A stretch of 64,000 bases of DNA, from the NCBI GenBank assembly GCA_023133415.1, contig JAGLWM010000002.1, positions 24,081 through 88,080 on the forward strand, in the 5' to 3' direction. This document shows, one piece after another, positions 326-59,231 of the stretch. How positions within the stretch are numbered: position 1 is the first letter of the stretch; every line of letters starts with the position of its first letter. Source of the DNA: Candidatus Pacearchaeota archaeon (GTDB lineage Archaea; Nanobdellota; Nanobdellia; Pacearchaeales; GW2011-AR1). A program made the position numbers and the translations under genes. The notes under the pieces are model-generated. The model made no database searches, was not told where the DNA came from, and saw only the letters and a program-made list of their open reading frames with translations.

Positions 326-3300
326 TTAACTTTTAAGTTTTTCTTTAATCTTTTTTATACGTTCATCTATTAATCGTTCTTTAGGAATTGCTTTTGCTTC
401 TGTAGGAAGTTCTTGTTTTTGTTTTAGGATAGTCAAAATATCGAATTTTTTACGGAGGATGTAGATAACCATTATGAGTACAGCTATCAAAATAATAATT
501 AATATGCATATTGTTATCCAAAACAAATATTTTTTTGTTTCTACGGTGAATATTATATTTTCCAAATCACTTTCAACATCATCTACACATTTATTGGCTT
601 GTTTGAGATTATTTTCTGCATTGATAAAGATTCCTTCTTCAATATCTGCATTTAAAGTAGAAACCATGTTTTCACATTCTTTTAATTTTATTAAAATGCC
701 CCTTTCTTGAGTTTTTATTTTTATGTCTAATATTCGTTTTTGTATATTTTCTATTTCTTTTTGATAATAATTTTTAAAATTCATTACGTTTATTTTAAAT
801 GGCTCTGTGATTGTTATGTTGCCTGTTTTTATTATATAAGCAGATTCTTTTTCTCCGATGAAATCTTTAATAATTAAATTTATTTCGAACTCTTTTATTT
901 CTCCGGGTTTTAGTGTTGATATTATTTGTGGATTTATTAGGTAGTGTGTATCTTCAAGGTTTTGGAGGGTGAGGGTTATGTCTGTTATTTCTTCTTCTCC
1001 GGTATTTTTTATTTTTAGTATTATACTTTTCATGAGATTACTTATAACAGCAATTGTTTTTTCAGAATCATATATTATTAATTTTGGTTCTGTCGTTATT
1101 ATATCTTCTATATCTTCACTAATTGCTCCACCGTTTCCGCCTCCATCTCCTCTACTTGGGCAGATTCCACAATCCGAGGGACATGTTGAGCAGGTTTCAT
1201 CTCCATTACATATTCCATCTCCGCAGAAAATATTTCCTGCCGTTGTGCTAAATATTTTATATGCGCCTGCTCTCTCTGTATCAAGATAATAACCGACGAA
1301 TGTAATTTGCACTTGTCCAACATAATCTGTTGAAGGCTGGATATATTTCGTTATTGGTGCGATTCCTACTGCGAATGTGTCCATTCCTGCATCTAAGATT
1401 TCCTCTGTATCGGTTCTTGTTAGGCTCCATGCTAATGATAAGTCGGTCGGGTTGTTTCCAACATTGTCTGCTGTTACTGAAATATTTAAGTTATTTACAA
1501 CGTTACTAAGTATCTCAATATCGCCGACGTCGAAGAGGGCTCCCACGACTTTCCAGAATTCGTGCGTGTAATATGATATTGATGAAATTGTTGCATTAAT
1601 TATTGTTTCCCATTCTCCTGCCATTGGGGCAGAGCCCACGGAATAAGAATAATTGTAGATGCCAGTTTGTTTTTCTGTCATAGGATTGGTGGGGATGATG
1701 TTGCCTGCCGAGTCATAGATTGTGATTGCGATGGAATCTGGGCTGGTGTATATTCCTGATTGTTTAAAAAATGCTTCTGCATAGTAGGTGCCAGTTGCCT
1801 CTACTTCTGGATAGCCGCTAACCTCAACGGAATAACCGCCTCCGATATCAGATGAGACCTGTAATTCTATGTTGGACGAATTCCACGAGTTTGCGTAGTT
1901 ATCAGTATATGTTATGTTTAGGGAGTATGTTTCTTCTGAGAGAGGAACGGACAAGAACCATATGGTTGTTTTTGTTTGGTCGGCTGTGAAATTTTCCATT
2001 GGCATATTCTGGGGATAGGTGGAGGGAAAAGTAAATCCATCGGGGGTATTGAGATAAGCATAAACATTTTTTAACGGATCTATTGCGGTTAGTTGTCCGG
2101 CTATTTTTATTGTGTGGTATGGTAGTGTTATTGCTGGGGCTGTTTCGTTTTGTGTAGTTGTGTTTGGTTTTGTTACATTAAATTCTTGCCATGCAATCGA
2201 GTTATTAATTTGTTCTAATTTATCTTGCGCGTAAACTTTGAATTTGTATGTTCCGACCATAGGAGCGATAAAGGATGTGTTGAATGAGGTTGTGCTTGTG
2301 TTTGACATTGTTATATTTATTGAAGTATAATTGAAGGATACCCATGCGGTGTCCATGTTTGCATCGGATATTGTTGCCGAGATTATTACCTGTTCGCCTG
2401 ATGTTATATTGGAGTCTATTTGGAGGTTTGTTATTTGAGGTGCTTCATAATCTATTATGCTTTTGACGTCGAAACTTGAGTCTGAAGAATCGGTTGTGAC
2501 TGAACGTGAATCGTTCAAAATTATTGTTAGGTAATATGTGCCATATACTCCTGTGCTGTTCCAAGAGTATGTGCAGTTATTTGTTGTAGCGGTATCTGAA
2601 TCGCTATCGGTGCAATAGTTTGTTAAATTAATGTTTGATGCTATTATATTTGTCGTGGAATTTTGTGATTCTCCATAATAGATGTTTGCTGTGAGAGCGT
2701 TTGAATTGGGGTCAGAGACATTAAATATTATTGGATAGTTTCCCTGAGATTGGTTCACCGTTTCTTCTCCATTTGGCTGAATGATATTTATAATTGGTGG
2801 ATGGTTTGCGTGGAAGTAATTTTCTGAGGATATTGAAGAGCAATTGTTTGCGTCACAGACTGCGACCCAGAAACTTGTTGTTGTGTTGTCTGCTGATATG
2901 ATTGTGTAGGAGCATGTTATGGGATTTGTTTGTGCGAGAGTGGTGCTACAGAATGTTTTATCGGTACATCCTTCTGAGAATGTTATAGTTGAAGAATTGC
3001 ATACGTATGCTTGTGTATCATCTGATTCGAGGTCTGTCCAATCGATTGTGAAAGTTACATCTTCTCCTACTCCTTTTGGGTTTGTTGGGGTTGTATCTGT
3101 TGCTATATTGTCTATTGTCGGGGCTGCGTTTGCAACGTGTTCTATTATTATTTGCGGTCTTTGTGATGATGTTGTTGAATCTGATGAAGAAATTTTTGAG
3201 TAGTTTCCTGCGGAGGTATTTGATGCTATTAAGATAATTCCGTAATTATTTGAAGTGCCGTCGATCCAGTCTCTTGCGAGTTCGGTTATTGTGAAGTTGT

Positions 3301-3793
3301 AGTAGTTTCCTGAGGAGTTGAGAAAGATTTGTGTGTCTATCTCGGTTGAGTCGTAGTCGCCTCCGGCTGATGACCAAAGGGACGAGCTTGTTTTATTATT
3401 CCATGATGTTTTTGATTCAATCCATTCAGATGTTAGTTGATAGGCTTTAATGGTTATATTTGAACTTCCTGCAGTAGTTTCTAAATATACCTGAATTATT
3501 GCATCTGTTATTGTGTCTGTTTGTGGGATTGATGAGAGGTTGAATTGCAGGATGGCACGGAATTCTTTATTGGCAGCCGTTTTTCCTATACTTAGTGTCG
3601 TTGCTGTCGGGAAATTGTTATTTGGAAAATCTTCTCTGATATAGGTGTCTTTGCCTTCTGTCGCGTCTGGTTGAGAATTAAAAACAACATGTCCCACTAG
3701 GCCTTGTGGAATTTGTGTAAAAGATATTATTAAAAATCCTAAAATGAATATTAAAAATCCTAAAATAAGTGTAGTTTTTTTTCTTTTTTCCAT
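326..3793 (-). CDS. Large secreted N/S/T-rich surface protein (putative S-layer or adhesin-like glycoprotein)
   Basis: 1155 aa. N-terminal TM/signal, many N-x-S/T sequons, Cys cluster (CGDGICNGDETCSTCPSDCGICP), C-terminal TM plus coiled coil. Confidence 0.55.
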   Translation of the reverse strand: MEKRKKTTLILGFLIFILGFLIISFTQIPQGLVGHVVFNSQPDATEGKDTYIREDFPNNNFPTATTLSIGKTAANKEFRAILQFNLSSIPQTDTITDAIIQVYLETTAGSSNITIKAYQLTSEWIESKTSWNNKTSSSLWSSAGGDYDSTEIDTQIFLNSSGNYYNFTITELARDWIDGTSNNYGIILIASNTSAGNYSKISSSDSTTSSQRPQIIIEHVANAAPTIDNIATDTTPTNPKGVGEDVTFTIDWTDLESDDTQAYVCNSSTITFSEGCTDKTFCSTTLAQTNPITCSYTIISADNTTTSFWVAVCDANNCSSISSENYFHANHPPIINIIQPNGEETVNQSQGNYPIIFNVSDPNSNALTANIYYGESQNSTTNIIASNINLTNYCTDSDSDTATTNNCTYSWNSTGVYGTYYLTIILNDSRSVTTDSSDSSFDVKSIIDYEAPQITNLQIDSNITSGEQVIISATISDANMDTAWVSFNYTSINITMSNTSTTSFNTSFIAPMVGTYKFKVYAQDKLEQINNSIAWQEFNVTKPNTTTQNETAPAITLPYHTIKIAGQLTAIDPLKNVYAYLNTPDGFTFPSTYPQNMPMENFTADQTKTTIWFLSVPLSEETYSLNITYTDNYANSWNSSNIELQVSSDIGGGYSVEVSGYPEVEATGTYYAEAFFKQSGIYTSPDSIAITIYDSAGNIIPTNPMTEKQTGIYNYSYSVGSAPMAGEWETIINATISSISYYTHEFWKVVGALFDVGDIEILSNVVNNLNISVTADNVGNNPTDLSLAWSLTRTDTEEILDAGMDTFAVGIAPITKYIQPSTDYVGQVQITFVGYYLDTERAGAYKIFSTTAGNIFCGDGICNGDETCSTCPSDCGICPSRGDGGGNGGAISEDIEDIITTEPKLIIYDSEKTIAVISNLMKSIILKIKNTGEEEITDITLTLQNLEDTHYLINPQIISTLKPGEIKEFEINLIIKDFIGEKESAYIIKTGNITITEPFKINVMNFKNYYQKEIENIQKRILDIKIKTQERGILIKLKECENMVSTLNADIEEGIFINAENNLKQANKCVDDVESDLENIIFTVETKKYLFWITICILIIILIAVLIMVIYILRKKFDILTILKQKQELPTEAKAIPKERLIDERIKKIKEKLKS

Positions 3794-4216: not shown

Positions 4217-4292
4217 TGATTTCTTTCTTTTTTAGAAAAAAAGAAATTTCTCGCAAGTAGAAAAAACTTCTTTTCCAAAACTATGCTTTGAT
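4217..4292. repeat. Module-A miniature repeat (AT-rich, TTTCTTTTTT-AG-AAAAAAAGAAA hairpin) abutting the start codon of the minus-strand gene
   Basis: Near-identical copies at 6185-6460, 7392-7526, 22356-22476 and 59232-59309. Confidence 0.8.
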
Positions 4293-4466
4293 TCATTTTT
4301 CTTTATCCCTCCTTTTTTCTATTTTGTCTTCTTCTTTGCGGAATAAAATAAGGGTGATTCCAATGAGCGTTGGGATTAGGGCGGGGATTATCGCGGAGGT
4401 TTTTATAAAAATGATTATTCCGAGGATTATCCCGGCAATTCCTAAGAAAATTGATTCTTTTGTCAT
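4293..4466 (-). CDS. Small membrane protein (about 57 aa)
   Basis: Internal Met of ORF 4293..4679. The upstream part of that ORF is a translated module-B repeat. Hydrophobic core. Confidence 0.3.
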   Translation of the reverse strand: MTKESIFLGIAGIILGIIIFIKTSAIIPALIPTLIGITLILFRKEEDKIEKRRDKEK

Positions 4467-4544
4467 GGTTTGGTTTAGTTGTTTTAGTTTATAAGTTTTA
4501 GGTAGGGAAAAACTTTGTTTTTCAGTTGGTAGTTGGTAGTACGC

Positions 4545-4680
4545 TTCGCTTGTGGTGGTTTGTTGCGGTCGCTCGGCACATCCCAAATTGCTTGGCAGTT
4601 CTGCACACCCCAAATTGCGGAGTCTTGGAGCGAGTGTCGGGGCGAATGTGGGGCATGGTTGTTCCGCGTGACTTGGCAAC
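4545..4680. repeat. Module-B GC-rich dispersed repeat (core TTGGCAGTTCTGCACACCCCAAATTGCGGAGTCTTGGGGCGA with CCCCAA/TTGGGG hairpin)
   Basis: Related copies at 8040-8245, 11838-11910, 18340-18410, 20575-20640, 22390-22430, 25210-25310, 56343-56480, 58470-58530 and 6370-6405. Confidence 0.8.
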
Positions 4681-5870
4681 TAAAAAGGTAAGTAAAAAAT
4701 TATTGTGGGTATTAATATTGCGCTCATAAGGAAGCTTCTTCGGGTTTGAAATTCGATGCAGGTAAGGCCGAGTGCTGTTGCGGTTGTTAAGATTATTAGG
4801 CCTTGAATTCCTGTGAAGTAGGTTGTGATTATTATTAGGAAAATTAGGATGATGGTTGATATTTTTGTGTAGGGGATTTTGTGGATTTTTGTCGCGATTA
4901 TTTTTGAAATTTTTAGGGAGAGTGGTATTGTGAGGAGGGATGCCATTATGATTGTTGCTAGAATTGTTACGAGGTTTGTTGTTGTGAGGCTTGTGATTTG
5001 AGAGATTGCGAAGGCTGTTCCTGTTCGGGATTTTTGGAAGAGGTAGAGTGTGACGAATGAGATTGACATAACGAGTGTGTTGATGGAGCCGAGGAGAATT
5101 AAGAATTGTTCGCGGTTTAGTTTTTTTGTTATTGTGGATCCGATGATTGCGGCTTGGCTACTTCCGAGTCCTGGGAAAAATGAACAGATTGGAGAGATTA
5201 AGATTGTTGCTATTGTTGGTTTAATAATTTCTTTTTTGTCGATTTTTAGTTTTTCGATTTTCTGTGGTGGAAGAATTGTTTTGGATTTGATAGAGTGAAT
5301 TATTGTGGAGGTTCCGAAGAGGCCGGTTAGGAGGGGGAGAAGGGGTTGGGATATTCCGAGATTAAAGCTACTCAGCCCGAGGAATCCAGCGAGAGTGAAT
5401 ATGAGGATTGCTTTTATTTTGGATTTTTTTTCGTTATAGATTAGAAAGATTGCGATCCAGATTAGGCTGAATCCCATCATGCGTTGGATGAAAGGGTAGA
5501 GCTTTGGCATAAGGATTATGAAGATTGGGATAATGAGAATGAGGGAGATGATTGCGATGGTTGACCCAAGGAGGGTTAGCTTTAGGGCGTGGTGACCTTT
5601 GCCCTCGAGAAGGAGTTCGTGTCCCGGGAGAGTTCCTAAGCAGGTGTCTTCGTTTGGGGCTCCAAGAAAAATTGCTGGGATGAAGTCGATGAATGTGTGG
5701 GTTATTGCCATTGCGGTTAGGAAGATTAGGAGGGTTGTTGTTGGAAGATTTTGGATGAAGGATATGGCAAGAATGAAGATTGCGATGAGGTTGATGTGGA
5801 TTCCGGGGATGAGGCCGGTGATTGTGCCAGAGAGGATGCCAATTATAAGCGGAATGATTAATTCTATCAT
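4680..5870 (-). CDS. TctA/DUF112-family membrane transporter subunit
   Basis: 396 aa polytopic protein. Motif GAPNEDTCLGTLPGHELLLEGKGHHAL resembles the TctA signature. Confidence 0.5.
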   Translation of the reverse strand: MIELIIPLIIGILSGTITGLIPGIHINLIAIFILAISFIQNLPTTTLLIFLTAMAITHTFIDFIPAIFLGAPNEDTCLGTLPGHELLLEGKGHHALKLTLLGSTIAIISLILIIPIFIILMPKLYPFIQRMMGFSLIWIAIFLIYNEKKSKIKAILIFTLAGFLGLSSFNLGISQPLLPLLTGLFGTSTIIHSIKSKTILPPQKIEKLKIDKKEIIKPTIATILISPICSFFPGLGSSQAAIIGSTITKKLNREQFLILLGSINTLVMSISFVTLYLFQKSRTGTAFAISQITSLTTTNLVTILATIIMASLLTIPLSLKISKIIATKIHKIPYTKISTIILIFLIIITTYFTGIQGLIILTTATALGLTCIEFQTRRSFLMSAILIPTIIFYLPF

Positions 5871-6184: not shown

Positions 6185-6460
6185 TGATTTCTTTCTTTTT
6201 TAGAAAAAAAGAAATTTCTCGCAAGTAGAAAAAACTTCCTTTCCAAAACTTCGTTTTGATTTAATTCCATGATTTCTTTCTTTTTTAGAAAAAAAGAAAT
6301 TTCTCGCAAGTAGAAAAAACTTCCTTTCCAAAACTTCGTTTTGATTTAATTCCATGATTTCTTTCTTTTTAGGCAGTTCTGCAGACCCCTAATGTTTGAA
6401 CTCTGGGGCCAAAAAAGAAATTTCTCGCAAGTAGAAAAACTTAATTTCCAAAAATTTATT
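6185..6460. repeat. Tandem array of three module-A units (about 86 bp each). The third unit has a module-B core inserted in its hairpin loop.
   Basis: Direct tandem copies. No unique spacers, so not a CRISPR array. Confidence 0.85.
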
Positions 6461-6480
6461 TTTATAGTCAATTTTTGCCA

Positions 6481-7458
6481 TTATCTTGTTTGGAATTCTA
6501 TTATGTCTTTGTCTTTTAGTATGTGGTCTAGTCCAATTACTTGACCGCCGAATTTTGATGAGGGTCCCCATACTTTTGCTCGTTTAATTTTTTTTGACAT
6601 TCCTTTTAGGATTTTTTCTGCGGCGTCGTGGAAAGTTGTATCTTTTTTTAGTATCATTGGCTCTTTGCTAGGATCCTTTTTCGGTTCTTTTGTATAGACT
6701 CGGATGATTGGGAATGTTTCGAAGATTTTTTGTTTTAAATGTTTTAGTTGTATTTTAGTTGGAGAGTTTGAAAAGAAAACATAGGAGAGATTCTTGTATT
6801 TTGATTTTAGTGTTGCTTCAATTTTTCGCTTTTCCTTTTCTGAGAGGAGGTCTTCTTTATTGTAAATTATAATTATTTTTGCGTGGGTTCTGTAGATGTG
6901 TTTTTCGGCTTTTTTGATTTGATCGAGGTTGTCGATTATGAGGAGGAGGGTATCTGTTGAGTTGATGAGTGATTTGTCGTGATTTGGAAAAGAGGGTTGG
7001 TCGATGATCTGGATTAATGCGTCTTCGAAATGGAAGGTTCCGAGTTGATGTCGGTGAGTTGTGAAGGGATAGGGGGAGGTTTTAGTTTCTTGGTTTGTTA
7101 GAGTTTTGAAGATTGTTGATTTGCCGGTGTTTGGGAATCCTGCGAGGACGCATTGCATGTCGGCTTTTTTGATTCCGATTTGTGTTGATTTGCCAGATTT
7201 TTTTTGTTTGGCTATGGAGGTTTTTAGTTTTTTGTAACGATTGGTTAGATTTTTTCGCATGTTTTCAGAGGATTTGTGTTTTGGGACTTCTTTCATCATA
7301 ATTTCTAGGTATGCGAGTCTTTCTTCGTCTGTTGTTGCTTCTTGGAATTCCTGCTCGGCTTTTTGGTAGAATGGGGATTGGTTTGTTGATGCTATGATTT
7401 CTTTCTCTTTAGAAAAAATTTCTCTTCCACCCAAAATGGCGTACCTCTGTTGAGGCAA
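6481..7458 (-). CDS. DRG-family GTP-binding protein with C-terminal TGS domain
   Basis: G1 GFPNTGKST, G2 FTT, DQPS motif, TGS-like C-terminus. N-terminal 20 aa overlap a module-A repeat, so the true start may be downstream. Confidence 0.75.
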   Translation of the reverse strand: MPQQRYAILGGREIFSKEKEIIASTNQSPFYQKAEQEFQEATTDEERLAYLEIMMKEVPKHKSSENMRKNLTNRYKKLKTSIAKQKKSGKSTQIGIKKADMQCVLAGFPNTGKSTIFKTLTNQETKTSPYPFTTHRHQLGTFHFEDALIQIIDQPSFPNHDKSLINSTDTLLLIIDNLDQIKKAEKHIYRTHAKIIIIYNKEDLLSEKEKRKIEATLKSKYKNLSYVFFSNSPTKIQLKHLKQKIFETFPIIRVYTKEPKKDPSKEPMILKKDTTFHDAAEKILKGMSKKIKRAKVWGPSSKFGGQVIGLDHILKDKDIIEFQTR

Positions 7459-7607
7459 AGTAGAGAAACTTATTTTCCAAAACTGCGTTTTGATTTAGTT
7501 CCATGATTTCTTTAATACTGGAAGGTTTAAGAGAGTTGTGTCGGCGGCGAGGTGTTTGGGTAATGGGTTTTAGTAAGGTTATTAAATGTGTATGTTTTTA
7601 GAAACTT

Positions 7608-8036
7608 ATGGAGAAGGCGGTTATTTGGTTGAGTGTTTTTATTTTGTTGATTGGGGGAGTTGTAGCGCAGGATGGTTGGGGAGAGATTAATATTGAGGAT
7701 TCGGGGGTTGATGCTCAGATGCCAGGTGAGATGCCAAGTGAGATGCCAGGTGAAATGCCAGGTGAGATGCCAGGTGAGATGCCAGGTGAGATGCCAGGTG
7801 AGATGCCAGGTGAGATGCCAAGTGAGATGCCAGGTGAGGCGGTAGAGGGTGAGGTGCAACAAGAGGTTTTATTGCCTGACGAAAGGGGGGATGGGGAACG
7901 GGTAGCAGTGTCAGGGAATGGGAAATTTTATACTACGGATTTTTATATTGCCTTAGGGATAGGTCTTTTTATTTTAGTTGTAATTGGTATTGTGATTTTC
8001 TTTTTGATTCGAGGACCAAAGAATAAGTGGAAGTAG
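7608..8036 (+). CDS. Secreted acidic repeat protein (MPGE/MPSE x10) with C-terminal TM anchor
   Basis: Signal peptide, 12-nt tandem repeat at 7719-7838, C-terminal TM plus basic tail. Confidence 0.6.
7719..7838 (+). repeat. 12-nt tandem repeat (ATGCCAGGTGAG)x10 inside the CDS
   Basis: Directly visible in sequence. Confidence 0.9.
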
Positions 8037-8039
8037 GGG

Positions 8040-8245
8040 TTCACTTTATGGAAAGGTTCAGCTTTGCTGGAAAGGCTTAATCGCTGTTGCGATTGGAAAA
8101 GCTCATGCTTTGCGTGGGGGCTTGGCTGTTAGTGGTTTAAATGTTGCGGTCGCTTGGCATATTCCTAATTGCTTGGCAGTTCTGCGTACCTCAAATTGCG
8201 GAGTATCGGGGTGAATAAAGGGGTACGGTTTGTCCGCGTTAAGAA
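8040..8245. repeat. Full-length module-B repeat
   Basis: The 5' half matches 25230-25300. The 3' core matches 4560-4680. Confidence 0.8.
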
Positions 8246-11220: not shown

Positions 11221-12471
11221 ATGGAATTTGAAAAAAGGGTTTTGGCGAATGGGTTGACGGTTTTGTTTGAGAAGCGGGATGTTGATGTGACTAGTGTGAT
11301 GTTGGGCGTGAAGTATGGGTCGGCTTATGATTCTATTGAGGAGAAGGGGATGGCGCATTTTATTGAGCATTTGTGTTTTAAGGGGACGAAGAAGCGGACA
11401 GCGAAGCAGATTGTTGATGAAGTTGAGAAGATTGGAGGGGAGGTGAATGCTTTTACTCATGAAGAGATTACGGCTTATTATGTTAAGTTGTCGTCGGAGC
11501 ATTTGGATGTGGCAATGGATGTGATTTTTGATATTTTTTTTAGTCCTGTTTTTCCTGAGGGGGATGTTGGAAGGGAGGCGAGTGTTATCTGTGAGGAGAT
11601 TAAAATGGTTAGAGATAATCCGATGAGACATGCATTGGAGAAAATTAAGGAAAATTTGTATGAGGAACCATTCGGGTTTTTTGGTGGCGGGAGGGCTGAG
11701 GTTGTTCGGCGAATGACAAGGAATCAATTGAAGGGGAGGCATGATGAGGTTTATCTTCCTGAGAATTCGGTTCTTTGTGTTGTTGGGAATAATGATTTTA
11801 GCGAGATAATTTCCCTTGCAGAGAAACTTACTTTGGGGGTCAGAAGTCAGAGGTCGGAAGTCGGGGCCGCTCGGCACACCCCAAATACTCTGAGTTCTGG
11901 GGCGAGTCAGAAGTTGGAGGTGCCGGAGATTGTTGGGAAGATTGTTAAGAATGATGAAAAGAGGGCGGGTTTGGAGCAAGCGAATGTTGTGCTTGGTTTT
12001 CATTTTCCGATGGCGAGCGATAAGGAGCGTTATGCTGCGGAGGTTTTTTCGGCGATTTTGGGGCAGGGGATGAGTTCAAAGCTTTTTGCAGAGGTCCGAG
12101 AGAAGAGGGGTTTGGTTTATGGGGTAAAAACGGATTTGGATATGGGGAAGAATTATGGCTATATGGTGATTTGGGCTGGGACAGATCCAGTGAAGGTTGA
12201 GGAGGTGAAGAGTATCTGTTTAGAGGAGTTTGGGAAGATGGGGGAGATTACTGAGGCTGAGTTGGAGGAAGCGAAGGCTCAGGTTGTTGGGAATTGGAAG
12301 GTTGAGTCAGAGGGGTCTAGTGAGACGGCTGTGAATTTGATTATGGAGGAGATTGCAGGGGATGCTAGGGAGTATTATGATTATGAGGATAGAATTGGTG
12401 AGGTGACGCTTGAGGATATTAAGAAGTTGGCTGGGAAGACTGAGTTCGCTTCGTTTAGTTTGGGGCCATGA
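11221..12471 (+). CDS. M16-family zinc peptidase (pitrilysin-like) carrying an in-frame module-B repeat insertion
   Basis: HFIEH inverted zinc motif. Repeat-derived segment at about 11838-11910 is translated as GVRSQRSEVGAARHTPNTLSSGAS. Confidence 0.75.
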   Translation: MEFEKRVLANGLTVLFEKRDVDVTSVMLGVKYGSAYDSIEEKGMAHFIEHLCFKGTKKRTAKQIVDEVEKIGGEVNAFTHEEITAYYVKLSSEHLDVAMDVIFDIFFSPVFPEGDVGREASVICEEIKMVRDNPMRHALEKIKENLYEEPFGFFGGGRAEVVRRMTRNQLKGRHDEVYLPENSVLCVVGNNDFSEIISLAEKLTLGVRSQRSEVGAARHTPNTLSSGASQKLEVPEIVGKIVKNDEKRAGLEQANVVLGFHFPMASDKERYAAEVFSAILGQGMSSKLFAEVREKRGLVYGVKTDLDMGKNYGYMVIWAGTDPVKVEEVKSICLEEFGKMGEITEAELEEAKAQVVGNWKVESEGSSETAVNLIMEEIAGDAREYYDYEDRIGEVTLEDIKKLAGKTEFASFSLGP

Positions 12472-21671: not shown

Positions 21672-22355
21672 TTATTTTTTACTTATCTTTTTCATTTCGT
21701 TAATATTATCGATTAGAGGGTTCATTAGTTTCGCGACGGTTCCGTGGAGATTGTCTAGATCTTTGTGTATCATTGCGGAAGATTCTCCGAATTCCCCTAT
21801 TTTTCCTAGAACTGCTTGTTGGAGTTGCTGAATTGAATTTTCTATTCTTTTTAGTCGGTCATCGATGTCATCAACTTTATTTTGTATTTGATTTTTGAAT
21901 GAGACAATGTCTCCGATTTTTGATTTGTAGTTTTCTAGTTTTTCGGTTGCTATTTGTTCGGCTATTTCAGATATTGTTCCGGCGTCAAAAGATCCCTGTG
22001 GTGCATAGTAGTCTTGTTCGGGATAGGCTTGCGGTGTTTCTTGATAGTATGCTTCTTGAGGTGGCAAGGGTTGAGGTGGCGAGATTTCTGGAGCTTGAGG
22101 CTGTGGCGTTGGGGGTATTTCTTGGGCTGGAGCTTGAGGCTGTGGAGATGGCTGTGGCATTGGTATTATTGAAGGTTGCATCCCTTCGGGAGTTGTTTGA
22201 GTTTCCGGGGGAGCCACAGCATTTTTGATCTTGGCCTGATTTAGGGAATCGTTTATTTCTGAAGGAGAGATTCCTTCATTTTGAAGCTGTGCCATTATTT
22301 CGGTATCAGATTTATTTTGTTGTTGCATTTCTATTACTCGATCAAGTGTTGCCAT
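21672..22355 (-). CDS. P/Q-rich protein with C-terminal coiled coil
   Basis: Start set at Met of MATLDRV. The upstream 17 codons of the track ORF are a translated module-A/B repeat. Confidence 0.5.
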   Translation of the reverse strand: MATLDRVIEMQQQNKSDTEIMAQLQNEGISPSEINDSLNQAKIKNAVAPPETQTTPEGMQPSIIPMPQPSPQPQAPAQEIPPTPQPQAPEISPPQPLPPQEAYYQETPQAYPEQDYYAPQGSFDAGTISEIAEQIATEKLENYKSKIGDIVSFKNQIQNKVDDIDDRLKRIENSIQQLQQAVLGKIGEFGESSAMIHKDLDNLHGTVAKLMNPLIDNINEMKKISKK

Positions 22356-22476
22356 GATTTCTTTCTCTTTAGAAAAGAGAAATTTCTCTCGCGCCGTTCG
22401 GCACACCCCAAATTGCGGAATGCTGGGGCGAGTAGAGAAACTTTCTTTCCAAAACTTCGTTTTGATTTAATTCCAT
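22356..22476. repeat. Composite module-A repeat with embedded module-B core
   Basis: A-left + B-core + A-right arrangement. Confidence 0.8.
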
Positions 22477-25859: not shown

Positions 25860-26090
25860 TTAAAATATTAAGAATTTTAATTCATTCGGAGATTCTTCTA
25901 TTACATTCCTTGTAACCTTACAGATAGAGGCACCAGAAATAAAAGAATCCATAATCATTGTAGTAAGTGCAAAGGAAGGATATTCTCCAGTCTCTTTATC
26001 TAAAAACTCTTTCATCTTATCGAATAATTCTTTTTCATTTATTTGTTCTTTTTTTTCTATTAACAAAACTTCTTCAAGATACTCACACAT
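25860..26090 (-). CDS. Small hypothetical protein (possible toxin partner)
   Basis: 76 aa. Overlaps the upstream Panacea gene by 8 nt. Confidence 0.3.
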   Translation of the reverse strand: MCEYLEEVLLIEKKEQINEKELFDKMKEFLDKETGEYPSFALTTMIMDSFISGASICKVTRNVIEESPNELKFLIF

Positions 26091-26541
26091 CTAAATACTC
26101 TCCACTTTTTAATTCTTCTAATATCTCTTTTATTTGAGTCTCTTTATCTGAAAAATCTGTATGCTTTTCTTTGATTATTCTTATTATTTCATCTTCGGAA
26201 CAATTTAACTTTTTAAGGTAGTGAATTGAAGCCACAACTTCCAACCAAAAATTTTCTTTCCCATTGATAAAATTTAAAAAATTATTAAATTTATTCTCCA
26301 TAGATTCATCTTCAAATTTTATCTTATCCAAAGATTCAAAATCTACATTAAAACCATCTTTTGTAAGCTGGATTGAATATGGTCCATAATGATACCAATT
26401 AAATTCATATCCGATATTTAAATCAAACATACTCTGAAGTATATATGTGAACTTTTGTAATTTTAATCTGTTTTCAAAAGAAAACATATCAAAAGAATCA
26501 TATTTCCTATTTATTAATCCCGCTATAATATTTGGATTCAT
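26083..26541 (-). CDS. Panacea (DUF4065, SocA/GepA-like) domain protein
   Basis: LKLQKFTYILQ...WYHYGPY matches the Panacea antitoxin domain signature. Confidence 0.55.
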   Translation of the reverse strand: MNPNIIAGLINRKYDSFDMFSFENRLKLQKFTYILQSMFDLNIGYEFNWYHYGPYSIQLTKDGFNVDFESLDKIKFEDESMENKFNNFLNFINGKENFWLEVVASIHYLKKLNCSEDEIIRIIKEKHTDFSDKETQIKEILEELKSGEYLDV

Positions 26542-26655
26542 ATTAAAATTACTTTTATCACCCTTTATAAAATATAATGTATTCTAATGTTTATAAATAT
26601 AATGTATTTTTTCAGGTACCTAAATCTTTAAGTAGTTCAGGAACCTGAATTTACT

Positions 26656-26820
26656 ATGAAGATTCGTAAAGTCTTAGACAAAAAAGTTGGTGAAACGGAA
26701 TACTCAAAGTATCTTGTTACACTCCCAAAGAATATAGTTTTAGAATCAAAACTTTTAGGAGAAGACGTTGAAGTAGTTCTAAAAAACGATAAAATAATTC
26801 TTCAGAAAAAGAAAATCTAG
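26656..26820 (+). CDS. AbrB/MazE (SpoVT-AbrB swapped-hairpin) small DNA-binding protein, 54 aa
   Basis: Not in the ORF track (below 60 aa). LVTLPKNIVLESKLLGEDVEVVLKNDKIIL. Flanked by TTCAGGTACCTGAA-type palindromes. Confidence 0.5.
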   Translation: MKIRKVLDKKVGETEYSKYLVTLPKNIVLESKLLGEDVEVVLKNDKIILQKKKI

Positions 26821-26923
26821 TCTAATTTCTAATTTAAGCATTAAATAAATTCAGGTACCGAAACATTTATATATCTAGCATTTGCTATTCAGGTACCTGA
26901 TATTACTCGGGAATTAAGACAAA

Positions 26924-28165
26924 ATGGAACAAGTATTAAAAACAAAATGGAAGCAAATGAATAGAGAGGAGCGAGGCAGACTACTCTACAACACCGTTAA
27001 AATAGTTAAAACTTCTACAGGTTGGAAAGTCCCTTCTCAAACACGAGGTGGCTCTGGAGACAGATACACTGTTAGATTTAATGGACATAAGCCTAAGTGT
27101 AATTGTCCAGATTGTTATATGAGAAAGAAAAAATGTAAACATATCTATGCAGTAGAGTTTTATATTAAACAAGAAATAAACAAAGAAGGTAGATTAAAAC
27201 AAACAAAGGGAATAAGAGTAACTTACGGGCAAAAATGGAATGCCTATGACAAATCACAAACTAACGAAAAATTAGTTTTTATGAAACTCCTAAAAGATTT
27301 AACAACTTTCGTTGAGCAACCTAAATATAAATTCGGTCGTCCAACTTTACCAATGTCCGAAATGGTTTTTAATTCGGTTATGAAAATCTATTCAACTTTC
27401 TCTCTTAGAAGATTCATGTCAGATAGCAAGATTGCGAAAGAATTTGGCTTGATTAATTTTGTGCCTTGTTATTCTTCAATTGGGCATTTTTTACAAAAAA
27501 AGGGATTGACTCCTGTTTTGATTAACCTAATTAAAACTAGTGCTTCTCCATTAAAAGACGTTGAAACTGATTTTGCTTGTGATGCTTCTGGTTTTTCGAC
27601 TTCAAGATTTGCCAGGTGGTTTGATACAAAATGGGGTAAAGAAAAGAAATATAGAATTTGGTTAAAAGCACACATTTGTTCTGGAGTGAAAACGAATATT
27701 ATAACTTCTGTAGAAATTACAGAGGGTCACGCAAATGATAGTCCTCAGCTTTCTTCATTAGTTCGGCAAACTGTCGAGCGGTTTGAGGTGAGGGAAGTTA
27801 GCTGTGACCGAGCATATAGTTCTAAGCAGAACTTACAGCTCATCGCAGATGAGGGGGCAACCCCCTTCATCCCCTTTAAATCAAATGTAAAAGGAAAACG
27901 TACTGGCGGTGGTGCTTGGAAAAAGATGTATCATTATTTTATGTATAAACATGAAGAATTTCTAAAGCATTATCACAAGCGTTCAAATGTCGAGACTTGT
28001 TTTCATATGATTAAAACTAAATTTAGGGACAATCTCCGAAGTAAAACCCAGACTGCTCAAGTTAATGAATTGCTTTGTAAAATTTTAGCACATAATATTT
28101 GTGTTGTGATTCAGGAAGTTAATGAGCTTGGACTTAGTGGGGAGTTTGTTGTGGAGGAAAAATGA
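26924..28165 (+). CDS. IS4/IS5-like DDE transposase with N-terminal SWIM zinc finger
   Basis: CNCPDCYMRKKKCKH zinc finger. YHKRSNVETCFHMIK fits the Y(2)R(3)E(6)K signature. Acidic DDE residues. Confidence 0.65.
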   Translation: MEQVLKTKWKQMNREERGRLLYNTVKIVKTSTGWKVPSQTRGGSGDRYTVRFNGHKPKCNCPDCYMRKKKCKHIYAVEFYIKQEINKEGRLKQTKGIRVTYGQKWNAYDKSQTNEKLVFMKLLKDLTTFVEQPKYKFGRPTLPMSEMVFNSVMKIYSTFSLRRFMSDSKIAKEFGLINFVPCYSSIGHFLQKKGLTPVLINLIKTSASPLKDVETDFACDASGFSTSRFARWFDTKWGKEKKYRIWLKAHICSGVKTNIITSVEITEGHANDSPQLSSLVRQTVERFEVREVSCDRAYSSKQNLQLIADEGATPFIPFKSNVKGKRTGGGAWKKMYHYFMYKHEEFLKHYHKRSNVETCFHMIKTKFRDNLRSKTQTAQVNELLCKILAHNICVVIQEVNELGLSGEFVVEEK

Positions 28166-29661: not shown

Positions 29662-29663
29662 TT

Positions 29664-31853
29664 TTAATTAATTTTATTTAAATGGAAAGCATTTTTAATT
29701 TCTTCCTCTTGTCTCTTCAAAAATTCTTTAAAATCTTCTCTCAAGCTTGTAAAATCTTCATTACGATTACTAGTTTTTTCGAAAGTATTTTGATCAATTA
29801 TAAATGTTGGACTAAACTGTACAACCCTATTTTTAGTCTTAACCTCATAGCCAATATTTTTAACCTCTTTAGTGAAAACTTCATAATCTGATTTAAGAAT
29901 TTTTTTTATTTCATTAGGTTTAGGCTTATAGGCGATAATTACTGTTGTTGCAACACCTGTTTCTCCAAAGGTGTTTCCAGGCAGATCAAATAGTGCCACA
30001 ATTCGCATTCGGTTGATTATCCATCTTCGGATATTTTTCCATTCTTTTATGGAAGCAATTGAATTAGATAGAACAATCCCCATTCTTCCGCCTTCTTCAA
30101 GTAATTTGTAAGAATTTTCTAAAAATAATACTCCCATATCCATAGACTTCGGTAAATTGCCTGGCTTCCCATCTTTCTTCTTATCTGGTTTTTCTTTATA
30201 TGTTTGATAAAGTTCAATTGTTTCTTTTGGTAAATCCCATTTCCCTTTAGCTCCTGTTTTTAAATCCCTACCCTTACCAAATGGAGGGTTGGTTGCAATA
30301 ACTTTATATTTTTTAATCTCAATATTATTATCACTTAAATTCTCCCAAGTTTCTGGATTAAAATTTTTAGTAGTAAAATATCCTGCTTTCATAATTTTTC
30401 CATTTTCTAATAATTTTTGAGAGAGGGAATCCATTTGTTCAAGAGTTGCTCCTCCATCTCCATTTAGCACCAAGTTTAGTTCTGCAAGTTTTAAGTTACT
30501 GCCCTCTATATCAAAACCATAGAAATGGCTTGCATTATCTGGAAAATCCTTCTCTTTCCTATAAGAATGTCTAAATGCCATCGCTGGGAAATCTGCGATT
30601 CCACAACAGGGATCACAAAGTTCTTCTCCAGGAATAGGATTTAATAATTTGATTATATTTTGCACGACAGGAATAGGGGTAAAAAATTGTCCCTTGTCAG
30701 CTTTTTGTTTTTCATCCCCGAAATTATTAAAAATAATTTGATTAAAACTCTCGCTTTTAGCTTTTAAGATTGCTCTTTGTTGAAACGCTTCAATTAATGC
30801 TATTAAGAATTTTTCATCGTTTGAGTCACTAGATTTAAAATCCTTACTATAATTAAATGAGGGTTTAGATAAAACATTTCCATATTCCCTTTTTGCATCT
30901 TTATATAGTTGATTTATTCTTTCCTTAAAACTTTTCTCTGCTAATCCATCAACTCTTTTTTCTGAAGGTAAAATATAGAATTGTAAATTAGACTTATTTT
31001 TTATACTTCTTTTTTCATCAAAGACTTTCAATGTTAAAAACTCTACTATTAAACTTCTCACAGGACTCTTTGGTTTAATTTTATCATTTTCTCTTTTTAA
31101 AACATGCATCAAGTCTGTAAAGGTACTTTCATCAATAACATCTAAGGAGTCAAATTTTAATTTTGCCAGATTAGAAATACTCTCATTGTTCTCAATAAAG
31201 TCTTTCTGGCAAGGTAGATTAATCAACAAATCTCTATTTTGGATATTTATATCATGTAGCCCTTCCTCTTGCAATTCTCTGTCCTCATAGAATCTTCGCA
31301 AATCAGAATTACCCAACTTTTTTAATATAATTACTTCTTCCTTGTCATCAAAATAAATACCAAAAATCCTATCTTTTGAGGTATTCTTTTCCATCATTGA
31401 GTGCAATTGATTCTCTATAACTGATTGAACATTATCCCCTTGCTTTTTTTTAGCCTCAAAAACAACCAACATCATTTTATTCATTTCTCTGAAATCTTTG
31501 TTTTGTTTTGCTTTTTCATAAGTCTTTAACCATTCTTTCTCTTTGAACACTACTATATCTGCCCTAAGTGGAGTCTTTGTATTTCCTTTTGGCTGGCTAA
31601 ATTCTACACAGATATATTCCTTGTTATATGTCCCAGAATTAACCATGCTCCAAGTCATTCTTGCCCGAAACCATTCTTCAGAAAAATTTCCTTTAGCGTC
31701 TTTTGTTTTTGCCTTTGAGCAAAATGCACTAATATTAAGTTCTTTTTCGTACCAATCTTTATCAATTAAATCTAGTTTTGAATACTTTGACTCAAACTTT
31801 CTAAAATAATCCTGGAATTTTTCATCACTCATCTTCTTCCTCCCAGCAAACAT
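29664..31853 (-). CDS. BcgI-A-like Type IIB R-M subunit: N-terminal PD-(D/E)xK endonuclease (HSDR_N-like) fused to gamma-class N6-adenine methyltransferase
   Basis: RADIVVF...VVFEAKKK (D/ExK). MTase motif I DPCCGIADF and motif IV NPPFG. 729 aa. Confidence 0.65.
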   Translation of the reverse strand: MFAGRKKMSDEKFQDYFRKFESKYSKLDLIDKDWYEKELNISAFCSKAKTKDAKGNFSEEWFRARMTWSMVNSGTYNKEYICVEFSQPKGNTKTPLRADIVVFKEKEWLKTYEKAKQNKDFREMNKMMLVVFEAKKKQGDNVQSVIENQLHSMMEKNTSKDRIFGIYFDDKEEVIILKKLGNSDLRRFYEDRELQEEGLHDINIQNRDLLINLPCQKDFIENNESISNLAKLKFDSLDVIDESTFTDLMHVLKRENDKIKPKSPVRSLIVEFLTLKVFDEKRSIKNKSNLQFYILPSEKRVDGLAEKSFKERINQLYKDAKREYGNVLSKPSFNYSKDFKSSDSNDEKFLIALIEAFQQRAILKAKSESFNQIIFNNFGDEKQKADKGQFFTPIPVVQNIIKLLNPIPGEELCDPCCGIADFPAMAFRHSYRKEKDFPDNASHFYGFDIEGSNLKLAELNLVLNGDGGATLEQMDSLSQKLLENGKIMKAGYFTTKNFNPETWENLSDNNIEIKKYKVIATNPPFGKGRDLKTGAKGKWDLPKETIELYQTYKEKPDKKKDGKPGNLPKSMDMGVLFLENSYKLLEEGGRMGIVLSNSIASIKEWKNIRRWIINRMRIVALFDLPGNTFGETGVATTVIIAYKPKPNEIKKILKSDYEVFTKEVKNIGYEVKTKNRVVQFSPTFIIDQNTFEKTSNRNEDFTSLREDFKEFLKRQEEEIKNAFHLNKIN

Positions 31854-36089: not shown

Positions 36090-36461
36090 TTGATGGTGAG
36101 GGATTTTCGGGATTTGGACGTTTGGAAGAGGGCGTTTTTGTTTGGTAAGGAAATTTATAAGGTGACTTCTGGGTTTCCAAAAAGTGAAGTTTATGGGTTA
36201 ACTTCGCAGCTGAGAAGGGCGGCGGTCAGTATTTCGTCTAATATTGCTGAAGGATGCGGAAGGAGGACAAGTAAGGACTTTGTTTCGTTTTTACATAATG
36301 CGATGGGGAGTATTCGGGAGGTTGAAAATCAGGTTATGCTGGCTGGTGAGGTTGGGTATTTGGAGAAAGTGAAGGCTGAGGAGTTGGTGAAGGAATTGAA
36401 TAATATGGGGAGAATGTTGAATAGGTTTATTGGGCATGTTTCTGGATTGGAGATAGAATAA
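36090..36461 (+). CDS. Four-helix-bundle protein (23S rRNA intervening-sequence protein / Avd-like family)
   Basis: DLDVWKRA...GLTSQLRRAAVSISSNIAEG matches the TIGR02436-type signature. Confidence 0.7.
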   Translation: MMVRDFRDLDVWKRAFLFGKEIYKVTSGFPKSEVYGLTSQLRRAAVSISSNIAEGCGRRTSKDFVSFLHNAMGSIREVENQVMLAGEVGYLEKVKAEELVKELNNMGRMLNRFIGHVSGLEIE

Positions 36462-55688: not shown

Positions 55689-56342
55689 ATGGAATCAAAT
55701 AAGAAGTCCTCGGAATTTAATTTTTATGAGGCGGCATTGGTTAAGCGGACTGAGTTGTTTAAGGATTGTACTAATATTGTTGTGGGTGGTGGGGATTTGA
55801 ACGCGGATATTTTATTTGTTGGGGAGGCGCCGGGGCGGAACGAGGATTTGACTGGTGTTCCTTTCTGTGGGGCGGCTGGTAAGAATTTAGACAAGTTGTT
55901 GGATAGTGTGGGATTGAAGAGGAGCGATATTTATATTGCGAATATTTTGAAATGCCGACCGCCGTTGAATCGGGATCCGTTGCCTGAGGAGATTAGAGCA
56001 CATACTCCGTGGTTATTGAAGCAGATTAAAGATATGAAGCCAAAGGTGGTTTGTTCGCTTGGGAATTATGCGACGAAGTTTTTTTTGGCGTTAGGCGATG
56101 TTGAGAATATGAATGGTCAGCCGGGGATTACACAGGTTCATGGGCAAGTTCGGGAAATTGAGATTCGGTATTCGGGATTGGGTATTCGGGATTCGGAGGG
56201 GCAGGGGGCAGGGGCGGTTTTGAAGTTTAAACTAATTCCGCTATTTCATCCTGCGGCGATTATTTATAATAGAACGAAGTTGACTCCGTTGTGGGAAACG
56301 GATATGGAAATAGTTAAGAGAGAGACGAGAGTTAGGGATTAG
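55689..56342 (+). CDS. udg: Family 4 uracil-DNA glycosylase
   Basis: GEAPGRNEDLTGVPFCGAAGKNLD and HPAA motifs. Confidence 0.8.
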   Translation: MESNKKSSEFNFYEAALVKRTELFKDCTNIVVGGGDLNADILFVGEAPGRNEDLTGVPFCGAAGKNLDKLLDSVGLKRSDIYIANILKCRPPLNRDPLPEEIRAHTPWLLKQIKDMKPKVVCSLGNYATKFFLALGDVENMNGQPGITQVHGQVREIEIRYSGLGIRDSEGQGAGAVLKFKLIPLFHPAAIIYNRTKLTPLWETDMEIVKRETRVRD

Positions 56343-58314: not shown

Positions 58315-58530
58315 TTATCTTCTTCTAAGAGGGGCTGATCGAGGAGGTGCGTCACGGATTTGAGTGAATTTATAGTGAACCGATTTTGTTTTCAAATTGC
58401 ACTTTTTACACTCGTCTTGCATAGTATATATTTTGCATTTTGGGCATTTTTTGAGTTTTGTACCGCTCAGTGTACCCCTAATCTTTTGGCAGTTCTGCAC
58501 ACTCCAAATTGTGGAATTTTGGGGCGTCAT
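58315..58530 (-). CDS. nop10: H/ACA RNP subunit Nop10 with repeat-derived N-terminal extension
   Basis: LKKCPKCKIYTMQDECKKCNLKT matches the Nop10 zinc ribbon. First 23 codons come from module-B sequence. Start overlaps the aIF2alpha stop (ATGA). Confidence 0.7.
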   Translation of the reverse strand: MTPQNSTIWSVQNCQKIRGTLSGTKLKKCPKCKIYTMQDECKKCNLKTKSVHYKFTQIRDAPPRSAPLRRR

Positions 58531-59231
58531 TTTTCTTCAGTTGCAAAAAATTCGCAGTTGTTTTCTTTTGCTCGTTTTTCTAGTTTTTCTAGAATTTTTG
58601 TCATTTCTTTTTTGCCTTGTTTGAAATCTTCTACTGTTAGTTTTAGGGAGAGTTTTCCTGCCGAGATATAGGTTACTTTTAGATTGTCGTTTTTTAGGTC
58701 GAAGATTTTTTTTATTCGTGTTATTCCATCATTTTCTAGGCATTTGATTTTTATATTTTGGCGAAGCTGTTCTTTCTTTCGTTTTTTGTTGATGATTTTT
58801 TTGATTGCTTCTTGATTTTCTTTTGGAATGTATTTTTGAAGTAGTTCGGGGTTTATTTTTGTTGCTCTTGTAAACTCGGATAGGTCTTTAAAGTCGTTTA
58901 GTATTTTTTCTTTAATTTCTTTTTCTTTTTCTTTTAGGATTTGTTTGAATGCGACGTTGATTGCTTGTGATTGTTTGAATTTTTGCATTACCTCTTTTTT
59001 TTCTTTTAAGGTTACTCTTCTTAGGGATAGATGGGCATGGTCGCCTTCGATTCTTAGGATTTTGCAGACGATTTGTTTGTTTGGGACGACATATTGTCGC
59101 ATGAGTTTGATTCGGCCGGCGGCGATTTCGGAAGAAATTATTGTTCCTTCGTGGCCGTTTGGCATTTCTACGAATGTGATTGTGTTTGTCACTTTCTTGA
59201 CCTTACAGGGTATTAAGTCTCCCTCTTTCAT
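58527..59231 (-). CDS. eif2a: Translation initiation factor 2 alpha subunit (aIF-2alpha)
   Basis: S1 domain, HLSLRRV signature. Module-A repeat directly upstream. Confidence 0.8.
   Translation of the reverse strand: MKEGDLIPCKVKKVTNTITFVEMPNGHEGTIISSEIAAGRIKLMRQYVVPNKQIVCKILRIEGDHAHLSLRRVTLKEKKEVMQKFKQSQAINVAFKQILKEKEKEIKEKILNDFKDLSEFTRATKINPELLQKYIPKENQEAIKKIINKKRKKEQLRQNIKIKCLENDGITRIKKIFDLKNDNLKVTYISAGKLSLKLTVEDFKQGKKEMTKILEKLEKRAKENNCEFFATEEK

Follow-up and report, generated by a model that had tools for sequence, protein, structure and literature searches.

The 64,000-nt stretch of contig JAGLWM010000002.1 from a Candidatus Pacearchaeota archaeon that was analysed here at its full length (the window; 36.5% G+C) contains dispersed copies of a short repeat, which we call module B. 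Two of these copies lie inside conserved protein genes, that of an M16 (insulinase/pitrilysin) peptidase and that of Nop10, and are absent from the same genes of relatives, among them the close relative SMBSF31. The genes and features at the two loci are the following.

11221..12471 (+): M16 (insulinase/pitrilysin) peptidase gene, 416 aa, bearing the insert (Pfam PF00675 and PF05193)
11839..11862 (+): heptamer array GTCAGAA x3.4 in the linker (TRF), resuming after the insert (GTCAGAA GTTGGAG)
11863..11907 (+): net in-frame insertion of 45 nt (G215-S229), composed of GGG, the 39-nt module B core 11866-11904 and AGT (codon alignment against P0011/L032 and SMBSF31/L026)
58315..58530 (-): Nop10 gene, 71 aa against the usual 48-49 (Pfam Nop10p, 27.4 bits, cut-off 27.2, residues 25-52)
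58460..58525 (+): module B insertion of 66 nt, one 27-nt head and one 39-nt full unit, the antisense of which forms Nop10 codons 2-23
58527..59231 (-): aIF2-alpha gene (PF07541), the TGA stop of which overlaps the Nop10 ATG (ATGA), in the conserved S27e-aIF2alpha-Nop10 operon

The module B family

The module B unit is GC-rich, 38-39 nt long and reads GCMGYTCKGC-ACA-CCCCAAAT-N10-TGGGGCGA; it is laid out as a 10-bp palindrome (GCMG-YT-CKGC), ACA, CCCCAAAT, a loop of about 10 nt and TGGGGCGA. Its description in the first-pass annotation as a dispersed GC-rich repeat was borne out by several searches. The 16-nt core TCKGCACACCCCAAAT (up to three mismatches) was matched nine times in the window against 1.04 matches expected from shuffles, and an nhmmer profile detected seven full copies (E 1e-13 to 1e-16). 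Twelve copies were used to build a covariance model, which, applied unfiltered to both strands of the window, likewise returned seven full copies with E <= 2e-11 (range 1e-11 to 1e-15), all on the + strand, together with weaker partial units at 56373, 56347 and 4565; on the - strand of the window it gave no significant match. The same annotation had counted more than 10 sites, a figure that is too high, as nhmmer and the covariance model place module B at seven loci (about 13 units when the 27-nt "head" units are counted), or about one copy per 9 kb.

4565-4636 (+), full unit 4592-4636: composite intergenic copy (4565..4660) with two heads and three GGGGCGA-like tails, between the TctA stop (4680) and the start of a small membrane protein (4466)
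6370-6414 (+), full unit 6370-6414: copy within a module-A repeat (a second, longer repeat) at TTTTTAG/AAAAAAG, an exact 38-nt insert without target duplication, with empty module-A copies adjacent at 6185 and 6270
8149-8217 (+), full unit 8173-8217: composite intergenic copy (8149..8240) with two heads and two tails, between two + strand genes
11863-11908 (+), full unit 11863-11908: copy in the M16 gene
22390-22434 (+), full unit 22390-22434: 38-nt copy within a module-A repeat at TCTCGC/AGTAG, 38-76 nt upstream of the ATG (22355) of gene 21672..22355 (-)
56347-56480 (+), full unit 56436-56480: cluster of three to four heads and one full unit directly after the UDG stop codon, with heptamer arrays on its flanks
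58460-58530 (+), full unit 58486-58530: copy in the Nop10 gene

Heads precede the full unit at four loci, and GGGGCGA-like tails follow it at 4565 and 8149; these extra heads and tails look like module B copies nested in the loops of earlier ones. The copies at 6372 and 8175 are diverged. Since the units abut with a 27-nt period, without spacers, and the copies are dispersed, they do not form a CRISPR array. Scans of genome contigs added five copies in three contigs, taken as true relatives (one in L005 of SMBSF31, one in L018 and three in L019), the other 19 matches being ascribed to chance; the known copies in the window and the three contigs number 12, two of them genic. Module B had no match in the scan of viral contigs. 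Concatenated six-frame translations used as a query retrieved no other protein with the repeat at E <= 10, a search in which such short matches cannot reach significance (5.8e9 sequences), and Rfam returned no family across the window at the gathering threshold, nor any across 4400-4720 at E <= 1.

The palindromic character of module B, proposed as a CCCCAA...TTGGGG hairpin, stood only in part. The inverted repeat CCCC(AA)...(TT)GGGG exists, but its folding energy equals that of shuffled sequences, with z-scores of -0.6 to +1.2 against dinucleotide shuffles (eight copies as DNA and six longer contexts as RNA), and the variation within the CCCC/GGGG stem (4-6 bp) consists of C-to-T changes on one side only. 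Module B is weakly palindromic. The small 10-bp palindrome is preserved in 98% of the cells of the 12-copy alignment, and its third pair (columns 6/11) covaries without exception, being A-T in seven copies and C-G in five, from which a dyad-symmetric site or a mini-hairpin is probably under constraint. Readings as an origin-recognition box, a CRISPR repeat or a C/D box were considered and dropped, the dyad/G-string arrangement, the spacing and the box motifs being unfitting.

Insertion in the M16 peptidase

The peptidase ORF 11221..12471 (+) runs through module B with its frame intact, as had been proposed (covariance model: 11863-11908, 54.4 bits, E 1.7e-12), and its product is 100% identical to the NCBI entry "insulinase family protein" of Candidatus Pacearchaeota archaeon. 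The copy indeed separates the two peptidase halves, but it is smaller than the roughly 25 residues first assigned to it: the insert amounts to 15-16 residues (45-48 nt) in the linker between the two M16 domains, and the remainder of that interval (11838-11862) is the heptamer array, which relatives share.

Alignment of orthologues identified the insert as lineage-specific. The segment GAARHTPNTLSSGAS(Q) is unique to the window protein, occurring in none of 119 orthologues (120 best matches), most of which are 396-398 aa long. The linker of P0011 (locus L032) reads LGVRGQKSEV-EELKVPEI and lacks exactly those 15 codons; that of SMBSF31, whose protein is 77% identical, reads SGENESRVKVELPEI and is also without the insert. 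P0011, with the nearest linker, has the codons GGT CAG AAG TCA GAA GTT / GAA GAG TTG AAG GTG CCA GAG, to which correspond AGT CAG AGG TCG GAA GTC (45 nt) CAG AAG TTG GAG GTG CCG GAG in the window, where the peptides encoded around the insert include SEVGAAR/HTPNTLSSGASQK. The heptamer array predates module B at this site, because the VRGQKSEV / VAGRRSQ motifs that it encodes occur in many M16 orthologues without module B. A 9-nt target duplication (GTCAGAAGT) around the copy was considered and rejected, since the 67-nt spacing is out of frame and the motif belongs to the pre-existing heptamer array.

The gene is intact in other respects: every one of the 81 columns that are invariant in an 84-sequence alignment is retained, including the zinc-binding HxxEH (H46-H50). 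In the AlphaFold2 model (mean pLDDT 93.6, pTM 0.90) the only segment with pLDDT < 50 is residues 212-229, that is, the insert, in a loop between the N- and C-terminal domains; the remainder of the protein is modelled with pLDDT > 90. The same gene, of 416 aa, is also present on a separate ENA scaffold, and the insert is found in two assemblies.

Other lineages (P0006, P0030, P0040, P0112 and P0113) have inserts of their own in this linker, unrelated, lineage-specific and 9-37 residues long; that of P0040 is at L024 10610-10735 and that of P0112 at L023 1782-1871. The one in L024 is composed of (CAGAACT)n heptamers and a 36-nt repeat which recurs intergenically at L024 2954-2989. The P0112 insert ("GMTPQ...") was examined as an antisense module B and rejected, as the covariance model has no match in L023; it is a different GC-rich repeat. 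The M16 inter-domain linker is a recurrent landing site for repeats.

Insertion in Nop10

Module B also supplies the N-terminus of Nop10, as the first-pass annotation had stated, more precisely codons 2-23 of ORF 58315..58530 (-) (covariance model: 58486-58530, 57.6 bits). The insert lies directly after the ATGA start/stop overlap with aIF2-alpha and ahead of the zinc ribbon; module B is read here in antisense as TPQNSTIWSVQNCQKIRGTLSG, and among the peptides expected from this Nop10 is TPQNSTIWSVQNCQK. Nop10 homologues are 40-55 aa long, and 50 of them (HMMER, 1.8 billion representatives) align from query residue 24/25 and their own residue 2-3. In the relatives L029-L031, whose aIF2alpha is 84% identical, Nop10 has 49 aa and lacks the 66 nt. 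With relatives of 48-49 aa and homologues that begin after the insert, the alignment identifies this insertion, too, as lineage-specific.

The junction can be followed at the nucleotide level. The empty site of L029-L031 is ATGAACTCCCTAAAAAAATGC and the filled one ATGAC (66 nt) AAAACTCAAAAAATGC, which leaves at most a 2-nt target duplication (AC). In the relatives the ATG/TGA overlap, ATGA, reads ...GACAAATGAACTCCCTAAAAAAATGCCC, conserved in L031; the window has the same ATGA, 66 extra nt and then ...AAAACTCAAAAAATGCCC. Three further, independent ENA/Logan assemblies (L027, L033 and L034) carry the identical Nop10 insert. No ATG, GTG or TTG occurs between the insert and the first CxxC of Nop10 when the sequence is read, the sole alternative start being a GTG at codon 11, inside the insert. 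With no start between the insert and the first CxxC, an intact Nop10 must include repeat-encoded residues, so that at least part of the insert would be present in the protein.

In SMBSF31 this junction is occupied by another repeat: a module-A copy of 84 nt separates the aIF2alpha stop from the Nop10 ATG. Nop10 is uncalled by automatic annotation in L027 and L033, and in L033 a spurious 98-aa antisense ORF is called instead; the repeat insert evidently confuses annotation at this locus. An extra module B copy in L027 was considered as a polymorphic insertion and rejected, being the 6372 copy joined to aIF2alpha through module A. This join (L027 620-1012) links the GTPase/module-A/module-B region at about 6.2-6.5 kb of the window to aIF2alpha (59.2 kb) via a module-A copy, the regions compared being 6185-6480 and 59232-59620, and results either from chimeric assembly across the repeat or from genuine recombination of module-A copies.

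In both genes, orthologues without the repeat (119 for M16 and 50 for Nop10) do not carry the peptide segment, and because these segments are missing from them the comparison supports insertion of the repeat into M16 and Nop10, not its derivation from them. An origin of the shared sequence in misassembly (artefact or chimera), or alternatively descent of the repeat from an ancestral gene segment, is the least credible of the explanations that we considered. Metagenome scaffolds can join via repeats, and L027 apparently does so in joining a GTPase region to aIF2alpha through module A; on the other side, the inserts are in-frame within genes that are collinear apart from them, four assemblies share an identical Nop10 insert and two contain the M16 insert, and an ancestral segment is at odds with the orthologues that lack it.

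Fate of the inserted segments

Gene integrity and the lack of an alternative start codon argue for translation of both inserts, as passenger peptides that would be simply carried along and presumably neutral. Archaeal mRNA introns of the bulge-helix-bulge kind are known in cbf5 of Crenarchaeota, and with this precedent in mind the inserts might be removed before translation, for example as a mini-intron cut by the splicing endonuclease, so that both proteins would have normal length. We regard this as very improbable. The genic copies are exactly those with lengths that are multiples of three (45 and 66 nt against the canonical 38), a filter that splicing would make needless; M16 reads the element in sense, Nop10 in antisense; and the RNA folds no better than shuffles, with no helix-bulge-helix in the minimum-free-energy structures of the two copies.

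It is also rather improbable, if somewhat less so, that the inserts have been exapted, the M16 linker peptide, the Nop10 N-terminus or a DNA/RNA hairpin at the aIF2alpha-Nop10 junction now serving in linker-length tuning or in translational coupling or regulation. Recurrence at both sites would fit such a role, given that unrelated repeats have repeatedly lengthened the M16 linker (P0006, P0030, P0040, P0112 and P0113) and that module A independently entered the aIF2alpha-Nop10 junction in SMBSF31. A permissive site would, however, produce the same recurrence, each insert belongs to a single lineage, with a sequence and length unlike those in other lineages, and the M16 insert is disordered in the AlphaFold2 model. 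Translation as neutral passenger peptides is the reading that we retain.

Non-genic copies and mobility

The first-pass annotation had also let the repeat at 4545-4680 extend a small ORF. ORF 4293..4679 does run through it, but this extension is mechanical only: the SMBSF31 orthologue, a 56-aa membrane protein, starts at MTKES, which corresponds to 4466 in the window, and the repeat is intergenic because this start lies downstream of it. The gap at the site measures 213 nt in the window against 40 nt in SMBSF31, and that around the 8149 copy 231 nt against 42 nt in the orthologous SMBSF31 gap. The L018 and L019 copies are likewise intergenic or upstream of a probable start. Intergenic copies that are traversed by mechanical ORFs, as at 4293..4679 and in L018, constitute an annotation hazard.

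Over a 21-kb syntenic segment, SMBSF31 (L026) has no intact module B where the window has five copies; its site orthologous to 22393 retains a single decayed remnant. The remnant, together with the absence of intact copies, indicates a family that is older than the lineage split and was inserting afterwards too. Within module A, filled and empty copies can be paired at three positions, namely TTTTTAG/AAAAAAG (6372 in the window and two L019 copies), TCTCGC/AGTAG (22393) and CCCTGG/ (L019). Measured against empty module-A copies, the inserts at 6372 and 22393 are exactly 38 nt long without target duplication. The module B termini are not inverted repeats, GCMG... and ...GGGGCGA not being complementary. 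Among the targets, several lie at the centre of a palindrome, namely at the module-A CTTTTTTAG/AAAAAAG site, within the loop of a further module B and in an AT-rich palindrome of L005; targeting of palindrome centres is a lead only.

The genic copies add 45 and 66 nt, multiples of three, and the non-genic single copies 38-39 nt; the module B consensus has no stop codon in any of the six frames. In combination, these length classes and open frames bear the mark of insertion at random followed by selection for frame and for tolerance. No Y1/HUH transposase or RAYT was detected in a Pfam scan of about 60 ORFs within the window. The DDE_Tnp_1 gene at 26924..28165 was considered as a parent insertion sequence (IS) and rejected, as it has no sequence in common with module B, none of which lies at or near its ends.

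Strand polarity

All copies in the window lie on the + strand regardless of the orientation of neighbouring genes, sense in M16, antisense in Nop10 and, at the other loci, between genes of either strand. The same holds with respect to base composition in four contigs, where the module B top strand is on the G-rich strand: the GC skew is +0.35 in the window, +0.52 in L005 and +0.26 in L018, both with copies on the + strand, and -0.22 in L019, where all three copies are on the - strand. The L026 remnant agrees in polarity, and module A behaves in the same way. In bacteria, GC skew marks the replication strand. If it does so here, the uniform polarity would reflect either replication-strand-specific insertion or a polar function, of which we favour the former. 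The skew itself is extreme, reaching +0.64 in 2-kb windows with T > A on the + strand, and is positive even over some - strand genes; it resembles a strong bacterial-type replication skew, except where G+C is low, at 26-32 kb and 56-64 kb.

A polar function would make module B a host-beneficial chromosomal signal, comparable to KOPS, Chi or architecture-imparting sequences, or a protein-binding site, with the genic copies as collateral. All 12-13 copies sharing one polarity relative to the GC-skew strand, the density of about one copy per 9 kb, and the conserved 10-bp palindrome, in which the compensatory change suggests a dimeric protein-binding site, are what such a signal would lead one to expect. 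We nevertheless think it unlikely, for SMBSF31 manages without intact copies over 21 syntenic kb, copies decay (the diverged ones at 6372 and 8175; only a remnant in L026), the nested and tandem clusters are typical of selfish repeats, and carrying a 38-nt signal within Nop10 and M16 would come at a cost.

Interpretation

Module B combines lineage-specific insertion at sites that are empty elsewhere with a preserved frame, a position in a disordered loop or at an N-terminus, the lack of terminal inverted repeats (TIRs) and target-site duplications (TSDs), and uniform polarity. We consider it likely, though far from certain, that it is a very small, non-autonomous selfish mini-repeat, in-frame and stop-free copies of which persist at tolerant gene sites. 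Under this model module B would multiply within one Pacearchaeota lineage; new copies would arise as exact insertions, often in palindrome centres or in existing copies, giving arrays with a 27-nt period, and would all be oriented alike with respect to the G-rich (presumably leading) strand. A stop-free copy in a gene would survive selection provided that it adds a length divisible by three at a site where extra residues are tolerated; this applies to both genic copies, with 45 nt in the disordered inter-domain linker of M16 and 66 nt just after the start codon of Nop10, before the zinc ribbon. Insertion may have been brought about by a trans-acting, strand-specific mechanism that uses single-strand DNA or the replication fork.

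Several points weigh against this model. The census is small, with seven loci in the window and five copies in three contigs, and the polarity is drawn from four contigs in which the direction of replication is deduced from GC skew alone. The single covarying pair could mark two subfamilies that go back to one founder event, and the hairpins are thermodynamically ordinary, so that a hairpin-recognising mechanism is not established. Openness in all six frames also occurs in 15% of composition-matched shuffles and in 2% of 39-mers from the window. The Pfam scan of about 60 window ORFs offered no candidate for a mobilising enzyme, and translation of the inserts is deduced from the sequence.

A bolder version, which we put forward tentatively and hold to be rather doubtful, would make module B the first archaeal (DPANN) strand-polar mini-element that colonises coding sequence: a 38-nt unit devoid of transposon ends, it would integrate into single-strand DNA at the replication fork with a preference for hairpin loops and palindrome centres, its own loop included, by an enzyme beyond current profiles, and would act with module A and the heptamers in actively remodelling the intergenic regions, promoters and linkers of a streamlined genome. 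We found no relevant literature report of this repeat or of RPE-like elements (see below) in Pacearchaeota, DPANN or archaea. In-frame colonisation of genes by selfish repeats has been a textbook curiosity, essentially of Rickettsia and a few other bacteria. If the selfish model is true, the same outcome arose independently in another reduced-genome lineage, which would offer a second system in which to study the entry of new peptide segments into conserved proteins; a strand-polar repeat without TIR and TSD would also point to a novel kind of insertion mechanism.

Comparison with known repeat systems

The closest parallel, already drawn by the first-pass annotation, is with the Rickettsia palindromic elements (RPEs), described as selfish repeats of a reduced genome that are inserted in-frame at fold-compatible gene positions (Ogata et al., 2000, as summarised in PMC10969869). 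Module B resembles them in its dispersal through a small reduced genome, in occurring both between genes and in-frame within unrelated conserved genes, in orthologues without the inserts, and in showing no evident transposase or classical transposon ends. In M16 and Nop10 alike, insertion in a conserved ORF is in-frame and the segment is missing from orthologues, and the positions are fold-compatible (the inter-domain loop of the AlphaFold2 model in M16; N-terminal to the zinc ribbon in Nop10). The parallel is thus one of behaviour, and membership of the family is not supported. RPEs are about 100-150 bp long, encode a conserved peptide of their own and are confined to Rickettsia, whereas module B is archaeal and measures 38-39 nt (66 when double), too short for a long stable hairpin and with fold z-scores of -0.6 to +1.2; moreover, two of its 12 copies are genic and its strand polarity is uniform. 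Its length, the lack of a stable hairpin and the archaeal host speak against placing module B among the RPEs, which are set apart here by their description; it is RPE-like in behaviour, and it is not assigned to the REP or MITE families either.

We know of no report on strand polarity of RPEs. REP/BIME/REPIN sequences are extragenic, form stable stem-loops, usually in inverted pairs, with a conserved 5' GTAG/GGAG, and are mobilised by RAYT proteins (IS200/IS605-like Y1 transposases). Module B shares with them a size of 20-40 nt, GC-richness relative to the genome, short inverted repeats, the lack of TIR and TSD and mosaic arrays, and strand-specific single-strand DNA chemistry of this type would explain its polarity. 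As a stem-loop it fits in size, with a 10-bp palindrome and a 4-6-bp stem, but it folds no better than shuffles; in contrast to REPs, its copies are all direct, two of the seven loci are genic, and no GTAG/GGAG-type tetranucleotide or RAYT gene was seen in the 64 kb.

MITEs (miniature transposable elements with inverted repeats) of prokaryotes, including archaeal ones of Sulfolobus, Halobacterium and Haloquadratum (PMC10969869), are likewise short, non-autonomous and multicopy, and their intragenic copies can create in-frame fusions; they differ in having TIRs, TSDs and a parent IS, all three of which module B lacks, the IS in the window being unrelated. The ERIC and RU sequences of enterobacteria (Delihas, 2007, PMC2759123) are small intergenic repeats with open frames that occasionally lie inside genes, as module B does, but they are bacterial, 100-170 bp long and resemble TIR-bearing MITEs.

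Module A, heptamer arrays and genomic context

Module A, about 85 nt long, repeats from ATG to ATG and contains the palindromes AGAGAAATTTCTCT and CTTTTTTAGAAAAAAG. It always abuts the start codon of C-rich-strand genes, and all copies have one polarity. Its copies in the window and in relatives are listed here.

4217-4298: module A
6185-6353: module A, tandem x2.2
6411-6462: module A
7395-7502: module A
22355-22474: module A, split by module B
59232-59315: module A
L026 6412-6492 and 19966-20076: module A in SMBSF31
L028 3709-3789: module A in a relative

Module A is present at orthologous SMBSF31 sites and is newly inserted between formerly overlapping genes (GTPase/next ORF and, in SMBSF31, aIF2alpha/Nop10); it looks like a portable promoter or leader cassette. 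Heptamer arrays flank module B copies at 4524, 11839, 56332 and 56489. The UDG gene 55689..56342 (+), the third conserved gene so affected, has a lineage-specific in-frame insert of 16 residues (RYSGLGIRDSEGQGAG) at 56162-56214. Two heptamer arrays, GATTCGG x5 and GGGGCAG x2.4, encode this insert, which the UDG orthologues of L028 and L031 lack.

Pfam analysis of about 60 ORFs gave ordinary DPANN housekeeping functions (GTPase, diphthamide synthase, DHH phosphoesterase, ERCC4, RadA, RPA, IMPDH, UDG and the S27e-aIF2alpha-Nop10 operon), besides two loci for restriction-modification and a single DDE_Tnp_1 transposase; the window yielded no tRNA gene. A low-GC island at 26000-32000 (27-31% G+C, reversed skew) contains the DDE_Tnp_1 gene (26924..28165) and an N6_Mtase/Eco57I-like gene (29664..31853). 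At 59.9-63.9 kb there is a type I restriction-modification locus with M, S and a PD-(D/E)XK nuclease, and a second DDE_Tnp_1 gene lies just past the window end (L033 4058-5263).

Two further tandem repeats lie in ORFs without a Pfam match. The 12-nt repeat AGATGCCAGGTG (x10.2, 94% identity) occupies 7717-7838 in the 142-aa ORF 7608..8036 (+), and, in the interval 35950-36461, the perfect 15-nt x4.7 repeat TAGGCAATGGTTGGA sits at the end of a 723-aa ORF, the next ORF (36090..36461) encoding a 23S_rRNA_IVP / bAvd-like four-helix bundle with no reverse transcriptase seen nearby. Contigs of relatives (L024 1-1271 and L025/L026 1-2699, beside YbjQ) encode a bacterial-type DnaE (PHP, DNA_pol3_alpha, finger and HHH_6), which is surrounded by archaeal genes on a contig of 396 kb; the window encodes, at the matching position, a protein of 1155 aa (326..3793, -) that has a Disaggr_repeat domain.

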